DNA of 64,000 nucleotides from Octopus vulgaris (Eukaryota): assembly GCA_951406725.2 (NCBI GenBank), contig OX597823.1, positions 31,434,001 to 31,498,000 of the forward strand, in the 5' to 3' direction. Within the stretch, counting starts at the first letter, position 1; each line of letters begins with the position of its first letter. Of the stretch, positions 14,658 through 58,954 are shown piece by piece. The position numbers and the translations under genes are program-made. The notes below the pieces were generated by a model. It worked only from the letters and a program-made list of their open reading frames with translations. It did no database searches and was not told the DNA's origin.

Positions 14658-14738
<81 letters not shown>
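14658..14738. repeat. (TAA)n microsatellite at the 3' end of the R4/Dong-like LINE
   Basis: Pure TAT tract directly abutting the LINE 3' UTR. Confidence 0.9.
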
Positions 14739-14739
<1 letters not shown>

Positions 14740-17090
14740 TTACTGTCTTTGCACGGCTTCTAACGCTGGAGATGTATTACAATGTCAGCTGTTCACTACC
14801 AGAAAACTAAGGTAACAACCCTTATTTTTCGATCACCACCCGAAGTATTCGAGCGGTTCCAAGCAGTGCTGTTTTCTGCAAGTACTCCACCCTTATTGCA
14901 GCCCCTATTTGTTCCATGTACTTCTCAAGATTTTTGCTCACTGTTCCCATGGCTCCGATAATTATTGCTTCTACTACCACCTTTTCAGCGACCACTTTTC
15001 TTTCTTCCTTATTGCATACCTTTTTGTCAGCTGAGCATACAATATCTATGATCCAGCATCGTTTGCTTTCTTTCTCAATTAACACTGTCTGGTTTCCTAT
15101 TCTCTGTCTCATGGTTGCACTGAATCATAAAATCTCATAGGATCTTTGCATTATCATTTTCGATGATGCCTTCATACCATTTTTTTGATCTGTCAAGTCC
15201 ATACTTGTTGCAAAGTGTCCAATGGACAAGCCTTGCTATATTCTCATGACGTCTCTTATATACTTTCTGGGCTAGTGGCGTACATTGACTGGTAATATGC
15301 CATACGGTTTCATCATTTTGTTCACAAATTCTGCACTTATCACTTTCTGATATATTGTCTATTCGGTGTTTGAAGTAATTGGTTCTTAATGCTTGCTCTT
15401 GGACATCGTAGATCAGTATCACCGTTTCCGGTTTTAAATCAATTTTAGTCATCCATAACCATCTTTTTTCTCTGTCTATTTTATCTTCAACATCCCTATG
15501 AAATTGCCCATGCATTCTTTTCTTTATCCACCTATTTTCAGTTTCATTCATTCTCAGGTGCTTGTACACTGCTTTATCTTTGCAATCTTCCATCCTACAC
15601 ATGCCTGACCTTCTTACTTCCAATAATAGCGGTTCTGTGGCATTCTTACATACCGTACTATGTTGTTTTCTTCTGCTCTAATGTTGTGATCACATCCAGT
15701 CAGTCCTCTTCCCCCTCTTTTTCTTGATGCATAAGTCTGTCTGTGTCACTTTTTGGGTAAAGTATCCCATATCTAGTCAGCAACTTCCTTGTCTTTCTGT
15801 CTAAGCTGTTTAGTTTGTCTATTGTCCATGTGATTATCCCTGCTCCATATCTAAGGAGTGAAACCACCCAGGTTTTGATAGCTTCAATCGTATTCCGTCC
15901 GTTTAATTTCGACTTAAGGATCAGTATCAGTCTGCGCAAGTACTCCACCTTAAATTTTTCTGTCATTTCTTTCTCCATTAATTTATCCATTTCCAAAATG
16001 CCCAAGTACTTATCGCCCGTCTTTTCTAATTGCTTCATAACCTGCTCCGACGGTATCATTAACCCGTCCATACATTTAATTTTGCCTGTCTTTAATACTA
16101 ACACACCATACTTTTTCAATCCGAACTTCATTCTGATATCAGCACTGAAGGCATACACCGTATCAACGAGGGAACTGACTTGGGCTTCATCTTTACCATA
16201 AAGTTTAAAGTCATCCATGAATAACAAATGGTTGACTTTTTGTTGCCGGCTTTTGAATACACACCCAGCTTTTGCTTTCCTCAGAATCAGTGTCAGTGAT
16301 ATCAAGCACAGTACAAAGATCAGTGGGGACAGGCAGTCCCCTTGGAAGATGCCCCTCCTAATTTCTACTGTCCCTAAGCTTCTTCCGTATGCTGTCAGGT
16401 CCGTCCTCCAATTCGCATACTTTTTCCAAACAATCGCTCAACATTCAATGCAATCCCAAGCAGGTTCATACACACCATAATCTAAGAATGTGGGATCATA
16501 TCGTACGCCTTACGATAGTCGATCCATGACTAGGCTAAGTTACTTTTCCTCCTCTTGCAGTCTCTGAGTACAGTTTTGTCTATCAGGAGTTGATCCTTGG
16601 TACCTCTGCACTTGCGCTTGCAACCCTTCTGCACATGTGGCAGGACTCCATTTTTTTCCAGATGTTCGTACATTGACTCTGCGACTATTTCAGGCAATAA
16701 TTTCCACAAGTGGCAAGCAGGATATCGGCCTGTAATTGTCTACCGTATTGCCTTTATCAATGTTTTTCAAGCACAGTACTGTCCTACCCATTGTCTACCA
16801 CTCTGATGTTACTTGGTCGACACTTAACAAGGTATTGAGTTGTGTAGCTATTCGTGCATGACATTCACCAAATTATTTGATTTAGTAGCCTTGAACTGCA
16901 TCTGGTCCTGGGGCCTTCCAGTTGCTTTTTTTTATTTGCTGATTTCCTTCACTTTCCTAACTGAAATGACTAGTTCTGCTTTTTTTGGACAGACTACTGT
17001 TTGTTTCAGTTTTTGTAACCATTCAGCATCCTTCTTGTGCTCCTTGTCTTTGCTCCAGATGTCACTCCAAAACCTTTGACTTTCAATGTT
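14739..17090 (-). mobile_element. 5'-truncated, frameshifted R4/Dong-like non-LTR retrotransposon (RT + CCHC + restriction-like endonuclease)
   Basis: ORF pieces: VNHLLFMDDFKLYGK, KYLGILE, KLNGRNTIEAI, QEQALRT..DKCRIC..ETVWHITSQC, CWIIDI, LQKTALLGTARILR. Confidence 0.9.
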
Positions 17091-19017: not shown

Positions 19018-19231
19018 AGGCGGCGAGCTGGCAGAAATGTTAGCACGCCGGGCGAAATGCTTAGCGGTATTTCGTCTGTCTTTACGTTCAGAGTTCAAAT
19101 TCCGCCGAGGTTGACTTTGCCTTTCATCCTTTCGGGCTCAATAACTTAAGTACCAGTTTTGTACTGGGGGTCGATCTAATCGACTGACCCACTCCCCCAA
19201 AATTTCGGGCCTTGTGCCTAGAGTAGAAAAG
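19018..19231 (+). mobile_element. Full SINE family B with 16-bp TSD
   Basis: ATTATTATGGCTTCTA at 19002-19017 and 19232-19247. The core GCCTTTCATCCTTTCGG(G)..GATAA resembles the Meta-SINE domain (from memory). Other copies at about 4445-4610, 17920-18118, 28080-28200, 33535-33692, 33748-33950, 48135-48340, 52790-52960, 61722-61950, 62262-62410 and 63930-64000. Confidence 0.9.
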
Positions 19232-19547
19232 ATTATTATGGCTTCTATTTCGTCTGTTTCACGTTCATTTTTTTTTCTCTTCTATATGCTTTGCCAACTT
19301 TTACTCTTACTCCTCCGCCTCCATACTCATTGTCACCTCGCCACCCCTTGCACTCAATTATAGCGCCTCCTACTTCACACTTCTCCACCCCGCACTTCAC
19401 ACATAACACACTCACCTATATTCTTCTCGCAATAAACCTGTGGCCAAATCTATAGAGAATCGCAGGATGTCAGCCATTGAATAAACAAAGACACAAAGCA
19501 CCGTATCATCGAGAAATTCACTTGAAATAGGTGAACTGAGACCTAAA

Positions 19548-20964: not shown

Positions 20965-21356
20965 CATCTAGGCACAAGGCCCGGAAATTTGGGGGAGGGG
21001 GCCAGTCGATTAGATCGACCCCAGTACGTAACTGGTACTTAATTTATCGAGCCCGTGAGGATGAAAGGCAAAGTCGACCTCAATGGAATTTGAAATCAGT
21101 ACATGAAGACAGACGAAATAACCCATTTCTTTACTACTCACAAGGGGCTAAACACAGAGAGGACAAGCAAGGACAGACAAATGGATTAAGTCGATTATAT
21201 CGACCCCAGTGCGTAACTGGTACTTAATTTATCGACCCCGAAAGGATGAACGGCAAAGTCGACCTCGGTGAAATGTAAACTCAGAACGTAACGGCGGACG
21301 AAATACGGCTACGCATTTCGCCCGGCGTGCTAACGTTTCTGCCAGCTCGCCGCCTT
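20965..21356 (-). mobile_element. SINE B dimer: head + core + tail B + head-less core + tail A
   Basis: Tail B (..AGCCCCTTGTGAGTAGTAAAGAAAT) joins a second core at TATTTCGTCTG near 21120. Confidence 0.85.
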
Positions 21357-22514: not shown

Positions 22515-22620
22515 GCATAGGCACATATATTTATATATACAAACATAGGTATATGTGTATAAATTTAGGTGCGTGTGTATAGACAGATACAACACACACA
22601 TACACACATGTATATATATA

Positions 22621-22838
22621 TTTCTTTACTACCCACAAGGGGCTAAACACAGAGGGGACAAACAAGGACAGACAAACGGATTAAGTCGATTACATCGCCC
22701 CCAGTGCGTAACTGGTATTTAATTTATCGACCCCGAAAGGATGAAAGGCAAAGTTGACCTCAGCAGAATTTGAACTCAGAACGTAACGGCAGACGAAATA
22801 CGGCTACGAATTTCGCCCGGCGTGCTAACGGTTCTGCC
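22621..22838 (-). mobile_element. SINE B monomer with tail B
   Basis: Core plus tail ending GTGGGTAGTAAAGAAA followed by (TA)n. Confidence 0.85.
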
Positions 22839-22854
22839 ATTATATATATATATA

Positions 22855-26871: not shown

Positions 26872-28798
26872 CAGGTTCTCCTCACTTAACGTCATTTCTT
26901 TTCTACTCTAGGCACAAGGCCCGAAATTTTGGGGGAGGGAACCAGCTGGTACTTAATTTATCGACCCCGAAAGAATGAAAGGTAAAGTCGATCTCGGCGG
27001 AATTTGAACTCAGAACGTAGCGGCAGACGAAATACCAATTTCTTTACTACCCACAAGGGGCTAAACACAGGGAGGACAAACAAGGACAGACAAACGGATT
27101 AAGTCGATTACATTGACCCCAGTGCGTAACTGGTACTTAGTTTATCGACCCCGAAAGGATGAAAGGCAAAAAGGCAAAGTCGACCTCGGCAGAATTTGAA
27201 CTCAGAACGTAACGGCAGACGAAATACGACTACGTATTTCGCCCGGCGCGCTAACGTTTCTGCCAGCTCGCCGCCTTAACGTCGTTTCATTATAACTTCG
27301 ATGTGATATGAATATAAAATTAAAATAAAAATTCGAAAAGTGCACGCCTATCAAATTAAATCTTTGCTTGCTTTAATATTTTTTCTTTCTTTCTTTCTTT
27401 CTTTCCGTCTTTCTTTCTTTCTTTCTTCCTTTCTTTCTTTCTTTCTTTATATATTTTAATAACCTGTTGCGTTTTCAGTTCAGTAAAATATAAATAAACA
27501 ATACTGAATAACGATTGTTAAAAATACATTTTCGTCGAGTTCTGGGACATATAAGATCGGTCAACCGGTTTCCATGGCGTTTACGTTTTCATGATCAAAA
27601 CATTCCGCCTAAACGGGACACCAACTCGTTGCAGGGTTCAAGGCTAGCAATTATGAGGAAAAGGGGGTCAGTCGATTGCATCGGCCCCAGTACTTGACTG
27701 GTATGAAGGCGTGTAGTCTAGTGGTTAGGGTACTGCACTCACGATCGTTAGATTGTGTGTTCGATTCCCAAACTGGATGACGAGTTGTATTCTTGAGCCA
27801 AACACTTCGTTTCACGTTGCTTTACGGGTGGGAAAGTGGCAGAATCGTTATTGCGTTGCTGGGGATGTTTTTTGGTGAACCTGTGGTTTTCTACATTCTG
27901 ATTTCAATTCCCACCTGCCTGGAGAAGGCAACAAGAAACCACTCCAGCATTCATCGAAAGCCTAGTTCACGGTAACTGAAGTTCCAGTCATCTACTTAAC
28001 AGTGGCAGGAGAGGGTCATGCTTGGAGAAGGTTCACATGCACATGACCTGCCCAACGGCAGGCCACCACTAGTCTTGAGTGGTACTTTATTTTATCGACC
28101 CTGAAGGATTGAAGGTTGACCTCGGCGAGATTTAAATCCAGAACGTAGAGAGCTTAGAAGGAATGCTGCCAAGCATTTTGTCCAACATGCTAAAGATTCC
28201 GGGAACCCGTTGCCTTGCGATGAATGACAACGACAGTCATTCAATTTGTTTTTCTTGTTTTGTTTTGGGTTTTTTTTCACGAACATCATCTAAAATGCAG
28301 TCTTACACGTTTATTGTCAACTTCATTTTAAGGTACGACAAAACTTGAAATATAAAACAGTGGTGAAACTTGAATATCCTGGTGAAGAAATACTGAATAT
28401 GGAACTTATGGAGGTCGAATAGCACCGTGCGAGAATGAAAAAGAATTTAACAATTTCAGATTTGTCTCAGGTTTTTTATCCTTAGTTAAAACTACAGCCA
28501 TTTTCACTGTAACAAAGATACCTTAAGACATAGATCTTCAAACAGAATAAAAAATGAGTGATGCAAATCTTTCTTATATATGTTAATAACACATATATAT
28601 GTTTCAATATTTAATACCAGAAGTGATTTCAGTCTTTATTAAGAAGTTTGTTGATGTTTTCCTGACCTGGGGATACATTGTATGAATGCAGTTCTTCATT
28701 ATATCATGGAACGAACAGCAAAATTGTCGCTTTACGTCGTTTCACTAAAAGTCGCAATTTTTAAGAATCTGTCAACGACGTTAAGTGAAAACTGGCTG
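26872..28798. mobile_element. Pogo/Tigger-like DNA transposon relic carrying nested SINEs
   Basis: Left end CAGGTTCTCCTCACTTAACGTC; the right end reverse-complements to TA-CAGCCAGTTTTCACTTAACGTCGTT. No transposase ORF recognised. Confidence 0.45.
26899..27275 (-). mobile_element. SINE B dimer with 13-bp TSD
   Basis: TTAACGTC(A/G)TTTC at 26886-26898 and 27276-27288; internal tail B to GTATTTCG junction near 27035. Confidence 0.85.
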
Positions 28799-31111: not shown

Positions 31112-32371
31112 TGTGTATGTGCGTATTAATGTATATGTGAGCATGTGTTTGTACAGTTCTTCATCTGTCTATGCGCGTGTGTACGCGTGTGTCTATTGTG
31201 TGAGTATGTATCTATTGTATGTGTGTGTGTGTGTGTGTGTGGTGTGTGTGTGTATGTGTGGTGTGAGCGGTGATAGTTAAGTTTTGGTTAGATTATGAAA
31301 CAAACAAGAGTCCAGTGTAGATGAACGAAGATAGCGAGCGTTACAGGAAACTGGGGAGGGGAGGAGGGGGAGGAGCGGAGGGGAGGAGCAGAGGGAGGGA
31401 AGGAGGAAGGGGAGACCTGTTGAGTGAAGAAGCGTGGTGGGAGTGAGAAGTGTGAGAGGAGGGGTGAGCACTTGAAGAATGGTCGACATGTAGGAAGCAT
31501 TTCGACGATGGAATTTTTATTACGCCATTTCTTAGGATTTGGTCTGCAACTGCCAGTAGTGTATGCGTACATCTGTGTGTGTGTGTGAATGTGTGTGTGA
31601 GAGAGAGAGGGGGGTAGAAAGAGAGAGAGAGATAGGGAGGTAGAGGGAGGGAGAGAGAGGTAGAAGAAGAGAGAGAGAGAGGTAGAGGAAGAGAGAGAGA
31701 GAGAGAGGGGAGAGAGAGCGTATTTATACATAATCACACATAGATATGTGTGTGTATATGTGTGTGTACTCGTTTATTCTTTTCTTTTACTTGTTTCATT
31801 CATTGGACTGCGGTCATGCTGGAGCACCGTATTGACGAGTTTAGTCGAACAAATCTTCTGCTAACTTATTCTATCGGTCTCTTTGTACGAACCGCTACAC
31901 TGCGCAGGCGCAAAAAATAAGCAACGCCATTTGTAAAGCGATTTGGGGATGACAGATTACTCACAGAAAGACACACAATCACATATCTCCTACTTGATCA
32001 AATCATTTGACTGCGGCCATGCTGGGGCACCGCCTAGAAGGAATTTAGTCGAACGAATTGACCGCAGGACTTATTCTTTTATAAAGGCTGGTACTTATTC
32101 TATTGGTCTCTTTTGACGAACCACTAGGTTACGGAGACGTAAACGCACCAACACCGGTTGTCAAGCAGTGGTAGAAGACAGACACACAGATACACACATA
32201 TGTATCAATATAAATATATACGTCGGGCTTTTCTCAGTTTCCGTCTACCAAATCCACACACAAGACTTTGATCAACCCTGGGCTATAGTAGAAGACACTT
32301 GCCCAAGGTGCCACTCAGTGGGACTGAACCCGGAATCATGTGACTAGGAAGCAAACTTCTTACCACACAGC

Positions 32372-32970
32372 CGTATTTCGTCTGCCTTTCCGTTCTGAGT
32401 TCAAATTCCGCCGAGGTCGACTTTGCCTTTCATCCTTCCGGGGTCGATAAATTAAGAAGCAGTTACGCACTGGGGTCGATATAATTGACTTAATCCGTTT
32501 GTCTGTCCTTGTTTGTCCTCTCTCTGTTTAACCCCTTGTAGGTAGTAAAGAAATAGGTATTTCGTCTGCCTCTACGTTCTGAGTTCAAATTCCGCCGAGG
32601 TCGACTTTACCTTTCATCTTTTCTGGGTCGACTTTACCTTTCATCCTTTCTGGGTCGACTAAATAAGTACCAGTCACGTACTGGGGTCGATCTAATCGAC
32701 TTAATCCGTTTGTCCGTATGCCCTTGTTTGTTCCCTCTGTGTGTAGCCCCTTGTGGGTAGTAAAGAAATAAGAAACGTTAGCATACCGGGAGAAATGCTT
32801 AACAGTATTTCATCTGTCTTTACGTTCTGAGTTCAAATTCCACCGAGGTCGACTTTACTTTTCATCCTTTCGGGGTCGATAAATTAAGTTCCAGATGCGT
32901 ACTGAGGTCGATCTAATCGACTGGCCCCCTCCCCAAAAATTTCGGGCTTTGTGCCTAGAGTAGAAAAGAA
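32372..32970 (+). mobile_element. SINE B trimer (core+tailB, core+tailB, partial head+core+tailA)
   Basis: Junctions AAAGAAATAG|GTATTTCG (~32556) and AAAGAAATA|AGAAACGTTAG (~32770). Confidence 0.85.
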
Positions 32971-33124
32971 TATGTGTGTGTGTGCGTGTGTGCGTGTGTG
33001 GGTGGGTGTGTGGGTGTGTACGTATGAATTTTCTGTATACGTTGATGACCTTTCCGTTGTGTCTATTAAGTATTGATTAATGCATGTGTATACGTGTGAA
33101 TTATACGTATGCGCATGTGCGTGA

Positions 33125-36749: not shown

Positions 36750-39952
<3,203 letters not shown>

Positions 39953-43227: not shown

Positions 43228-43782
43228 TTTCTTTATTAGCCACACAGGGCTGCACACAGATAGAACAAATTACAAGGTTGAGCTTTTCTTTTGAAGGTTT
43301 AAAAAAAAAAAAAAAAAAAAGGAAGGGGGAGTTTCGATCAAAAGGGATCATAAAAGGAGAGAAAGAGGACAAAAAAAAGGGGGGTTAAAAAAAGGGGGAG
43401 AGGAAAAAAAAATTGATCAATAGGGATCGTTATCACAGAAATGTCAATATGAAGTGTAAAGGGGAGGACAGGTGAGGTTTACCCGTGGAAAGAAAAGCCT
43501 ACGGAAAAGACCACGGTAACCTCGGTCAATGGAGTCACATGTTATATTTCTTTTTTTTTTTTTTTTTTTTGCGAATAAGCAACTCTCTGTTTTCAATTTC
43601 TGGGTTCATAGGATCAGGCTCAAGGTGGCTTCGTCATTCATACGTGCCATTCTTGCTACATTCACCCATCTTTTTTTAAAACATTCGCTAGACAAAACTT
43701 GCCTCTCTACTCTCACTTTCCTTTTCAAGTGGTACTTGAAGAAGTTGATGAGAGATTGACCAGAGAGGAAAGTGTTTGTCTC
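43228..43782 (-). mobile_element. 3' fragment of the same Tx1-like LINE, with complete 3' UTR
   Basis: 43605-43782 matches 36841-37019. Ends GTGTGGCTAATAAAGAAA; the 5' truncation abuts (AGAT)n. Confidence 0.88.
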
Positions 43783-46650: not shown

Positions 46651-46722
46651 TTCCCAAGCGGGGAATCGAACCCCGGCCGCCGCGGTGAGAGCGCGGAATC
46701 CTAACCAGTAGACCACTTGGGA
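46651..46722 (-). tRNA. tRNA-Glu-CTC: tRNA-Glu (anticodon CTC)
   Basis: TCCCAAGTGGTCTACTGGTTAGGATTCCGCGCTCTCACCGCGGCGGCCGGGGTTCGATTCCCCGCTTGGGAA: perfect acceptor, anticodon and T stems; TTTT about 8 nt downstream. Confidence 0.9.
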
Positions 46723-54115: not shown

Positions 54116-54339
54116 CTTTCTCACACAGAGGACGAATAAACACAAAACATGAGTAGAATGAATTTTATGCCTGTCTTTAGGTCGCGTTAGGATGCACCGA
54201 TAATTGATTTCAAGAATATTATTTAATAATCACAATTAAAAGAACAAGGTAGCAGCCACCCCCACACATCACCAATACCACGACTACCACGACCACGACC
54301 ATCATCACCATCACCACCACCAACACTACAACTACTACC

Positions 54340-55307
54340 TATTTCTTTACTACCCACAAGGGGCTAAACACAGAGATGACAAACAAGGACAGACAAACGG
54401 ATTAAGTCGATTATATCGACCCCAGTGCGTAACTGGTACTTATTTAATCGACCCCGAAAGAACGAAAAGCAAAGTCGACCTCGGCGGAATTTGAACTCAG
54501 AACGTAACGGCAGCCGAAATACCTATTTCTTTATTACCCACAAGGGGCTAAACACAGAGGGGACAAACAAGGACAGACATAGGTATTAAGTTGATTACAT
54601 CGACCCCAGTGCGTAACTGGTAATTAATTTATCGACACCGAAAGGATGAAAAGCAAAGTCGACCTGGGCGGAATTTGAACTCAGAACGTAATGGCAGCCG
54701 AAATACCTATTTCTTTATTACACACAAGGGGCTAAACACAGAGGGGACAAACAAGAACAGACATAGGTATTAAGTCGATTATATCGACCCCAGTGCGTAA
54801 CTGGTACTTAATTTATCGACCCCGAAAGGATGAAAGGCAAAGTCGACCTCGGCGGAATTTGAACTCAGAACGTAACGGCAGCCGAAATACCTATTTCTTT
54901 ATTACCCACAAGGGGCTAAACACAGAGGGGACAAACAAGGACAGACATAGGTATTAAATCGATTACATCGACCCCAGTGCGTAACTGGTACTTAATTTAT
55001 CGACCCCGAAAGGATGAAAGGCAAAGTCGATCTCGGCGGAATTTGAACTCAGAACGTAGCAGCAGCCGAAATTCCTATTTCTTTATTACCCACAAGGGGC
55101 TAAACACAGAGGGGACAAACAAGGACAGACATAGGTATTAAGTCGATTACATCGACCCCAGTGCGTAACTGGTACTTAATTTATCGACCCCGAAAGGATG
55201 AAAGGCAAAGTCGACCTCGGCGGAATTTGAACTCAGAACGTAGCAGCAGCCAAAATACCGCTAAGCATTTCGCCCAGCGTGCTAACATTTCTGCCAGCTT
55301 GCCGCCT
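54340..55307 (-). repeat. SINE B pentamer: one head plus five 184-bp core+tailB units
   Basis: ATTTCTTTA recurs at 54341, 54525, 54709, 54893 and 55077. Flanked by ACA(A/G)CTACTACC at 54328-54339 and 55308-55319. Confidence 0.92.
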
Positions 55308-55641
55308 ACAGCTACTACCACCACCCCAACAACAGCCACACCATCAACCCCCTCCGCCACCATCATCATCACCGTCGTGGTCATCATCATCATCATCGTC
55401 GTCATCATCATCATCATCAGTCGTCTTCGGCTTTCTCCTCGTCGTCGCCGTCATTGTCAACTGACGATTATGAAATGCAAAGAAATTTCCAGCAGACAAA
55501 TTGAGAAATTAAACAGAAATCGTGTCTGTGGGAAAAAATCTGCTGCTTTTGTGATTATTTTATGTCGACACGACTAGACTGGATGGTTTATACCGGCTTT
55601 ACTCTAATTTTTGTGAGAATCTAAACAGACACACACACATA

Positions 55642-57962: not shown

Positions 57963-58673
57963 TTATTGCTTATTTAGCTTGGGTTCGAATTTATCAATAA
58001 AATTCTTTTCTCTGATTTTCCTCTCGATTTCACTTGGGCTGTGTAATTTGTAGAATGGAAATATTATATATATTTTCCGACCACATGTTGCTAGGTGGTT
58101 ACTCAAAGGTATCTGACGGACCTCTGGGTCTCTAATCTGTTGCCGGTGTACACGTGAGCGTTCTAATAGTGCGTTTCCCGTCTGACCTACATATATTTCT
58201 TCACAATTTGGGCATTTGATGCAGTAAATTAAATTTCTGCTTTTGCAGTTCATATTCGCGTTTGTGAATATTTTCCCGGTTTTTGTGTTTATATATTGAC
58301 CGGTATGTATGAATTGGCATGTGCCACATCGGCTATCATTGCATTTAGATACCGTGAATGTTTGGTCTTTGTTGCTGAGGTCAAATTTTGCCTTTGTTAG
58401 TAATGTTTTCAAGTTTTTAGGCTGTCTTTTACTAAGCACCATAGCTCGATCCTTGATTATGTCTTTTAATTCATTACTTTGGGCAATGATTGGTAGGTTT
58501 GCTTTGGCAATGTTGAAGATATTCTGGTGACATGGGTTGTGTGTCACTATGAATGGTATGACTTGTTCTTGTTTTCCTCTTCCTTGGGTTGTCCTAAGTT
58601 GTTGTATAGGTATTTTTATAGCCCGCTGTATGCCATTTTCTATAAGTAGAGATGGGTATTTTTGTTTGAGCAA
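57963..58673 (-). CDS. Penelope-like element C-terminal region: RT thumb/linker, CCHH and GIY-YIG endonuclease (fragment, no native start)
   Basis: KQKYP..LI, IPFIVTHNP, KCNDSRCGTC, NCKSRNLIYCIKCPNCEEIYVGQTG...R..HR, RKIREKNFIDKFEPKLN. Confidence 0.9.
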   Translation of the reverse strand: MLKQKYPSLLIENGIQRAIKIPIQQLRTTQGRGKQEQVIPFIVTHNPCHQNIFNIAKANLPIIAQSNELKDIIKDRAMVLSKRQPKNLKTLLTKAKFDLSNKDQTFTVSKCNDSRCGTCQFIHTGQYINTKTGKIFTNANMNCKSRNLIYCIKCPNCEEIYVGQTGNALLERSRVHRQQIRDPEVRQIPLSNHLATCGRKIYIIFPFYKLHSPSEIERKIREKNFIDKFEPKLNKQ

Positions 58674-58756
58674 AAATTCTCTTAGTTCTATTAGGCGTTT
58701 GTTCCTGATATTTGCATCTTATATATATGTATATATATACACACATACATGTATAG

Positions 58757-58882
58757 GGTAGCGAGCTGGCAGAATCGTTAGCACGCCGGGCAAAATGTAC
58801 TGGGGTCGATGTAATCGACTTAATCCCTTTGTCCGTCCTTCTTTGTCCCCTCTATGCTTAGCCCCTCTGTGGGCAATAAAGT
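58757..58882 (+). mobile_element. Internally deleted SINE B with tail B
   Basis: The head joins directly to TACTGGGGTCGATGTAATCGAC and tail AGCCCCTCTGTGGGCAATAAAG. Confidence 0.75.
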
Positions 58883-58883
58883 A

Positions 58884-58954
<71 letters not shown>

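Follow-up and report, generated by a model that had tools for sequence, protein, structure and literature searches.

A composite SINE array occupies positions 54327..55319 (minus strand) of the analysed window, a 64-kb stretch of octopus DNA that has the character of microsatellite-rich animal DNA. The array consists of a single 47-nt SINE head, five 184-nt units and a flanking 13-bp direct repeat, the target site duplication (TSD). About 19 loci in the 64 kb have a common head and core, and they fall into three groups: copies with the tail found in the array (tail-L), copies with a shorter tail (tail-S), and a few older copies with other ends. From its 5' to its 3' end, the array is built as follows:

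55307..55319, minus strand: 5' copy of the TSD, 13 bp, adjoining head position 1
55260..55306, minus strand: SINE head, positions 1-47, with an A-box-like stretch and the 5' strand and loop of a hairpin; T43/G48 type
55076..55259, minus strand: unit U1, with the hairpin 3' strand, a B-box-like stretch, the core and a LINE-like tail-L of a rare variant
54892..55075, minus strand: unit U2, without a head; pairs with U1 (support 88/86)
54708..54891, minus strand: unit U3, without a head
54524..54707, minus strand: unit U4, without a head
54340..54523, minus strand: unit U5, 3'-terminal, with the common tail variant and the T125/A128 core variant; outside the U1-U4 clade
54327..54339, minus strand: 3' copy of the TSD, starting with GGTA like the internal junction site

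The earlier note had proposed one head followed by five 184-nt core-plus-tail units, and this is confirmed by the unit coordinates and by TRF, which reports 54336-55259 as a repeat of period 184 with 5.0 copies, 95% matches and 0% indels; all five units are exactly 184 nt long, with three middle units between U1 and U5. The enclosing repeat had been given as 12 bp. The enclosure stands, and the length is corrected to 13 bp with 1 mismatch (55307-55319 and 54327-54339; 14 bp if the first G of the head is counted), with the repeat abutting both ends. The flanks are of low complexity and 11 of 9996 13-mer pairs match equally well, so that an abutting match of this kind is still unlikely by chance. 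The 3'-most unit does differ in its tail, as had been noticed: U5 carries the common variant and U1-U4 the rarer one. The A-box-like and B-box-like stretches are presumed from a by-eye comparison with the Pol III consensus, and neither ARAGORN nor Rfam called a tRNA in the head.

Three of the four internal junctions read GAAATA-GG-TATTTCG and the fourth, between U1 and U2, reads GAAATA-GG-AATTTCG. In each, a tail end joins head position 47/48, which is the 3' edge of the UAGC loop at the tip of a 13-bp stem, the location that had been claimed for it. Across 13 head copies 92.9% of the hairpin cells pair, a level attained by 2 of 500 shuffles and by none of the slid controls (39-57%), and the loop-closing pair alternates between U-G and G-C. 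Pairing across copies thus supports the predicted hairpin without proving it, as the copies are kin. In most other heads (as at 19019, 17922 and 61935) the 43:48 closing pair is U-G or U-A, versus G-C in the heads of the tail-L monomers at 21354, 22839 and 27275. A search of the window for the 14-mer junction motif with up to 2 mismatches returned 8 matches where 0.79 were expected, six of them SINE junctions and two beside a tRNA gene. The window holds an intact-looking tRNA-Glu(CTC) gene at 46651-46722 (minus strand). Cleavage of the tRNA-splicing type was considered for the position of the break and rejected, as counting back from the B box by tRNA numbering places the 3' splice site at about 59/60 and not at 47/48.

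The base at position 48 bears on how the units came together. Tails that are not in junctions end in GAAATA, so the G48 of the junctions likely comes from the partner; it is present in 7 of 7 downstream units, while C48 is found in four of the five tail-L first units. Duplication within a C48 monomer would yield C48, and the G48 of the junctions therefore argues against slippage inside a monomer. C48 abolishes the GGTA site and might guard a copy against insertion.

A phylogeny of the units, proposed in the earlier note as a check, could be built within this array and with the neighbouring loci. Differences between units number 4-17 over the 184 sites, and 4 columns are informative. U1-U4 group as a clade (98/96) defined by four tail changes absent from the six other tail-L copies, and U5 stands apart, grouping weakly with the second unit of a trimer at 32556 (66/57). 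Columns 56 and 110 show all four gametes among U1-U4, variants being common to conflicting subsets of units. Private changes increase from U1 to U5 (1, 3, 2, 5 and 6; one-sided p=0.023, a count that omits the four tail-type differences of U5), and the 3' units are at least as divergent as the 5' units at 4 of 4 loci. The age trend along the array is weak, given the few changes and the kinship of U1 and U2: measured against the family majority the five units are about equally distant, and distance is not significantly related to array position (16 of 120 orders). Individual variants link particular units. A128 is common to U5, the second unit at 32556 and the three oldest copies; T125/A128 together occur in both 3' tail-L units and in 0 of 5 first or single units; G57 is present in all five array units and in 0 of 17 other copies; and T63 is common to both tail-L units at 32369/32556. 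Sharing of G57 and T63 near the unit start is what a hidden target duplication would produce. Three T4 runs occur in the array, each arising from a point variant, and U2 and U3, among the units scanned, have none.

These differences weigh on the proposal that a reverse transcriptase rolled round one 184-nt circular RNA and wrote five units in one pass, as in retrozymes. The exact 184-nt period with 0 indels, the single TSD and the GGTA microhomology at the outer target would all suit such copying, and the unit size lies within the 150-300 bp given for metazoan retrozymes in the available part of one account (PMC7761336). One circular template would give identical units, however, and units that differ at 4-17 sites, with U5 from another lineage, do not fit a single circle. 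Neither strand of the unit contains a hammerhead core motif, no Rfam ribozyme matches it, and whole-RNA folding is no better than that of shuffles (z -0.93 and +0.50, the latter for the 184-nt unit). Furthermore, the 5' head would require an extra switch, and the mixed-family dimers described below require no circle. Reiterative copying of one circle, a candidate of the earlier note, is accordingly dropped for this array as very improbable. Because U1-U4 have four tail changes of their own, later expansion or a template of several units best accounts for there being five, and under every reading considered here the five units are best seen as the expansion of one incoming lineage.

Related composites lie elsewhere in the window, together with a copy used for comparison:

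20965..21354, minus strand: head and tail-L unit (21123-21354), then, across the junction, a tail-S element lacking a head (20965-21122); without a recognisable TSD
26886..27288, minus strand: head and tail-L unit (27037-27275), then, across the junction, a tail-S element that lacks its head and part of its interior
32369..32972, plus strand: trimer of a tail-L unit starting at about position 45-49, a head-less tail-L unit with a mixed core, and a tail-S element
22619..22839, minus strand: tail-L monomer inside a TA repeat, without a junction; comparison copy

A 13-bp TSD with one mismatch surrounds the whole mixed dimer at 26886..27288. The downstream units at 21122 and 27036 are tail-S elements of two different subtypes and that at 32556 is a tail-L unit with a mixed core, giving downstream partners of at least three types; the tail-S element of the trimer is joined at head position 15 (32770). 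At 21122 the bases of the sister family begin 13 nt from the junction, and the heads at 21354 and 27275 match the 5' (incoming) unit and not the target type. Essentially the same junction had been reported at about 21120, 27035 and 32556. Real junctions are indeed found at 21122, 27036 and 32556, though they are not identical letter for letter, and the first two have a downstream unit of a different family with another tail, a feature that the earlier note had not remarked. The nested form, a partial head followed by a second head, is seen at none of the 4 loci.

Copies at 32369 and 33692 begin at positions of about 45-52. No SINE head lies upstream at 32369. A second abundant repeat adjoins the trimer there (32250-32372, plus strand), cut short by about 11 nt at an AGCC microhomology with it, and 11 matches of this repeat in the window reach its 3' end. 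The 5' ends of three other SINE copies, at positions 11, 13 and 15-16, make a second cluster near the position-15 join. The core of the trimer's second unit contains a 27-bp duplication (32599-32660, plus strand), and an 8-bp duplication at about 27165-27172 affects the same core region. At 58761-58885 (plus strand) head positions 6-42 are fused to position 146 and an older tail-L variant, with about 100 nt deleted. Directly after the tail-S copy at 19019 and its 3' TSD, a short stretch (19248-19266, plus strand) resembles SINE positions of about 52-70. No head precedes the insertion, and the stretch is either a chance likeness or an old fragment.

The family counts as a SINE in being short, interspersed, many-copy and TSD-flanked and in having a 3' end in common with a LINE. 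TSDs of 13-17 bp are found at five of the eight loci examined (one of them not abutting the head); of the other three, one lies in a TA repeat and two have no TSD. Two LINE segments in the window bear on the tail:

43228..43782, minus strand: 3' end of an L1/Tx1-type LINE, whose last 50 columns match tail-L
36839..39505, minus strand: broken copy of the same LINE family with RT and zf-RVT domains; candidate partner family

Tail-L is identical to the LINE 3' end (43228-43277) in 37 of 50 columns, a score equalled by 0 of 1000 shuffles. Tail-S has no significant match to that end, its score being reached by 119 of 1000 shuffles. The fragment at 43228..43782 shows 83% protein identity to the end of the open reading frame at 36845-37453. 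Full-length relatives of the broken copy also have an AP-type endonuclease; the best relative of solved structure is L1 ORF2p, and the best named relative of the protein, at 63% identity, is from Argonauta hians. The putative partner is here called L1/Tx1-type, a label that covers both clades. Other mobile sequences in the window are a broken LINE of another kind at 14720-16437 (minus strand), with a reverse transcriptase match and an AAT-repeat end, and a 251-aa frame with a GIY-YIG domain at 57963-58718 (minus strand), likely a fragment of a Penelope-type element.

The two tails differ in how often they end inside another SINE. Four of 8 tail-L ends are joined at position 48/49 if U1-U4 are taken as one, or 7 of 11 if not, versus 0 of 9 tail-S ends (4/8 against 0/9, Fisher p=0.029, for a small sample whose events are taken as independent). 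One more of the 8 tail-L ends is joined at position 15, and the share of tail-L flanks lying in one repeat exceeds the 20% used by Kojima as a criterion. The sole LINE 3' end in the window, at 43228, is not followed by a SINE.

Four public runs were aligned to the monomer at 27037-27290, and three with different organism labels were used (X4, X9 and X14), each with 65,029-347,534 matching contigs. The fourth, a set of raw reads (X24), is not treated as evidence: 12 of its 12.9 million reads matched, one of them with the joint, and it is probably mostly from another organism. Run X9 is RNA by our guess, and contigs cannot show RNA ends or circles. The joints discussed are the 15 listed, beside which 642 further ones exist. 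Within the 11 back-joints listed, 189 of the 239 contigs from X4 connect the tail to position 49/50, as do 74 of 82 from X9 and 10 of 40 from X14, and this join is thus the leading back-joint listed in two of the three runs (X4 and X9) and not in X14. No head-then-head (nested) joint is found among the 15. The consensus of loose ends running past the tail starts with the junction sequence in X9 (214 contigs, agreement 0.61) and in X4 (1290 contigs, agreement 0.42). In the contig joints the letters between the tail and position 49 vary, the tail end wobbles across five bases, and C at 48 is absent among the junction letters listed. The T125/A128 letters make up 18-38% of the aligned depth, and summed contig depth, which is not a copy number, is lower over the head than over the tail in X4 and X9 and not in X14. 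Two further joints (27212->27100 and 27277->27100) leave the core end, pass through letters that do not align, and resume at position 64 or in a full head. They are relatively more frequent in X14; possibly they represent other tails on head-less units, or full-length tandems. A pattern scan of metagenomes returned 14 matches confined to the 19-21 nt searched, as expected by chance, and a scan of genome and viral contigs returned no match. The contention that simple slippage would not reuse one breakpoint is borne out by a junction that recurs in the window and in public contigs, mixes families and has G48.

From the observed anatomy, tail-LINE match, tail bias, mixed partners, recurrence and unit tree we infer an enzymology and an order of events in which the SINE inserts, with a site preference, into resident SINE copies, has its 5' end sealed by homology, and is then expanded locally or re-mobilised by read-through. 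We favour this model tentatively, as the leading though far from assured account of the arrays. Insertion itself would most likely be due to an L1/Tx1-type LINE enzyme preferring head position 47/48, to judge from the tail match and the protein relatives. A resident SINE, belonging either to the same family or to its sister, would be nicked by the partner enzyme immediately before GGTA, at the loop edge of the hairpin, and tail-L RNA would be copied into it. Homology between the new cDNA and the target head could let annealing seal the 5' junction so that one head remains, and the product would be a head, a new unit and a head-less old unit within the old target duplication. Most units being without a T4 stop, Pol III read-through would carry the junction into RNA, and this RNA might move intact or prime at further copies of the SINE. 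In the array, U5 would be the older resident, and U1-U4 would derive from one incoming unit that multiplied locally or arrived as a multimer. The earlier note's candidate of a SINE that inserts into itself at a fixed site thus becomes the preferred reading, widened to include the sister family as a target.

The tail bias and the mixed partners follow from insertion into resident copies, as do G48, the outer GGTA, the older-looking 3' units and the variants shared at unit starts. It also makes demands. Since no nested form is seen, head sealing must be almost routine, and the incoming-type heads at 21354 and 27275 need either heteroduplex replacement or re-mobilisation. Against the model stand the LINE end that carries no SINE, the headless start at 32369, the single join at position 15 and the 10 of 40 contigs in X14; moreover, a nuclease preference leaves the palindromic junction unexplained.

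That palindrome, GAAATA-GG-TATTTC, is the starting point of a second reading, in which SINE RNAs are joined before a single insertion. The RNA would be cut, or reverse transcription would stop, at the 3' edge of the loop; GAAAUA of tail-L would pair with the UAUUUC downstream, and RtcB-like ligation or an end-to-end template jump would make a chimera that is inserted with one head and one outer TSD. The template jumping named in the earlier note falls within this rival, which we rate as possible but less probable than insertion into resident copies. Of the 163 positions in head and core, just one, position 50, carries the reverse complement of the final 6 bases of the tail; it lies two bases from the junction break, and this would explain why only tail-L joins. 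In both mixed dimers the head is of the 5'-unit type, the TSD surrounds the whole composite and partial heads are lacking, all as expected of a joined RNA; the 5' ends at about 45-52 (32369 and 33692) and at 11-16 lie near the junction points; contigs differ in the letters that separate the tail from position 49; and RtcB ligation has a precedent in the available part of PMC6789731. The pairing, however, spans just 6 bp and is worth -3.6 kcal/mol, neither older 3' units nor rare variants shared at consecutive unit starts are predicted, and the first priming and the jump must use RNAs of two different LINE partners. An intramolecular product of the C48 type would in addition carry C48, which the listed junction letters lack. 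A variant that we consider quite unlikely has the SINE RNA cut at the loop edge and its tail ligated through the 6-bp pairing, yielding ribozyme-free 184-nt circles as well as cross-family chimeras; by this host-enzyme route, an L1/Tx1-type reverse transcriptase would write circles and chimeras as head-capped stacks.

The third reading, a multimeric master with later recombination, had been set by the earlier note against its own interpretation and is kept here as a rival that we hold unlikely. The junction would have arisen once or a few times and spread by Pol III read-through and retrotransposition, with mosaic partners and unit numbers produced by homologous template switching, gene conversion and unequal crossing-over. 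The great uniformity of the breakpoint over three runs with different organism labels speaks for it. The lack of T4 in U2 and U3, with the three runs in the array all point variants, is consistent with read-through; T125/A128 has the distribution of an arm-specific variant; the U1-U4 clade and its four-gamete conflict suit multiplication with recombination; and priming within a junction-bearing RNA would account for the GGTA of the outer target. Yet the four loci are four different composites, a crossover at 21122 would need to lie no more than 13 nt from the junction, and tail-L units on two of nine tail-S elements at position 48, with a third at 15, would be a high frequency for ectopic recombination. 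Once junctions are present, a master multimer with recombination probably contributes.

The arrays are a real, family-wide feature made of known parts, and what is unusual is the fixed self-junction. SINEs usually insert as monomers or fixed dimers; the present, very abundant family returns to a single internal breakpoint at separate loci, in two SINE families and in three public runs. If self-targeting is true, the SINE finds safe landing sites in its own kin and builds polarised arrays, an unusual mode of array building that offers a direct path from interspersed repeat to satellite, and octopus repeat libraries should handle head, core and tails as modules. If RNA joining is true, ligation of the U6/L1 type is extended to a fixed site and to genome scale.

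Ohshima and Okada reportedly described in 1994 the octopus tRNA-derived SINEs OK, OR1 and OR2, and the family analysed here may be one of OK, OR1 and OR2. Their consensus sequences were not found in the available part of one MetaSINE supplement. The junction is not described in the literature searched, nor the structure in the available parts of PMC13282606 (with its supplement), PMC4758252, PMC4824008, PMC3531059 and PMC9795677; the 1994 octopus SINE paper, Repbase and the 2015 octopus genome paper could hold a description.

Several known systems share parts of this anatomy. In R2 end-to-end template jumping, a 3' end is linked to a position inside another RNA, and one TSD results. The same is true of U6/L1 chimeras, in which RtcB ligation precedes insertion (Moldovan 2019; PMC6789731, as far as its available text goes); there L1 is variably 5'-truncated, whereas in octopus the join falls repeatedly at one position and has a SINE on either side. 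Metazoan non-LTR retrozymes are, in the available part of PMC7761336, dispersed tandem units of 150-300 bp that need a hammerhead, while the octopus array lacks a hammerhead and has a Pol III-type head and a LINE-derived tail. The sSats of squamates consist of tandem SINE parts in units of 70-290 nt, with a longer terminal unit (Vassetzky 2023; PMC10702118, available text), and the array is likewise a tandem of a SINE part with one longer terminal unit. In the available text sSats are put down to duplication and concerted evolution and the term "TSD" is absent; the octopus stacks, in contrast, are short, dispersed and TSD-bounded, involve two SINE families and use one breakpoint. With its three middle units, the array also falls short of the working limit of at least four middle monomers given there for an sSat.

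SINEs carried by Tx1 target another transposon and insert in tandem (Kojima 2015; PMC4494074, available part). Like the crocodilian SINEU/Tx1-Mar system described there, the octopus family may be mobilised by a LINE of Tx1 type that favours one site in a repeat, with tandem insertions and recurrent 5' additions over subfamilies. Unlike it, as far as the available part of PMC4494074 goes, in which the SINEU target is Mariner, the heads are snRNA-derived and the tandem copies sandwich a TSD, the octopus site lies in the SINE's own head, the added units are head-less and one outer TSD is visible. The octopus stacks are not visibly nested, and the family is not classed here as a SINEU-like member, but it may work like one.
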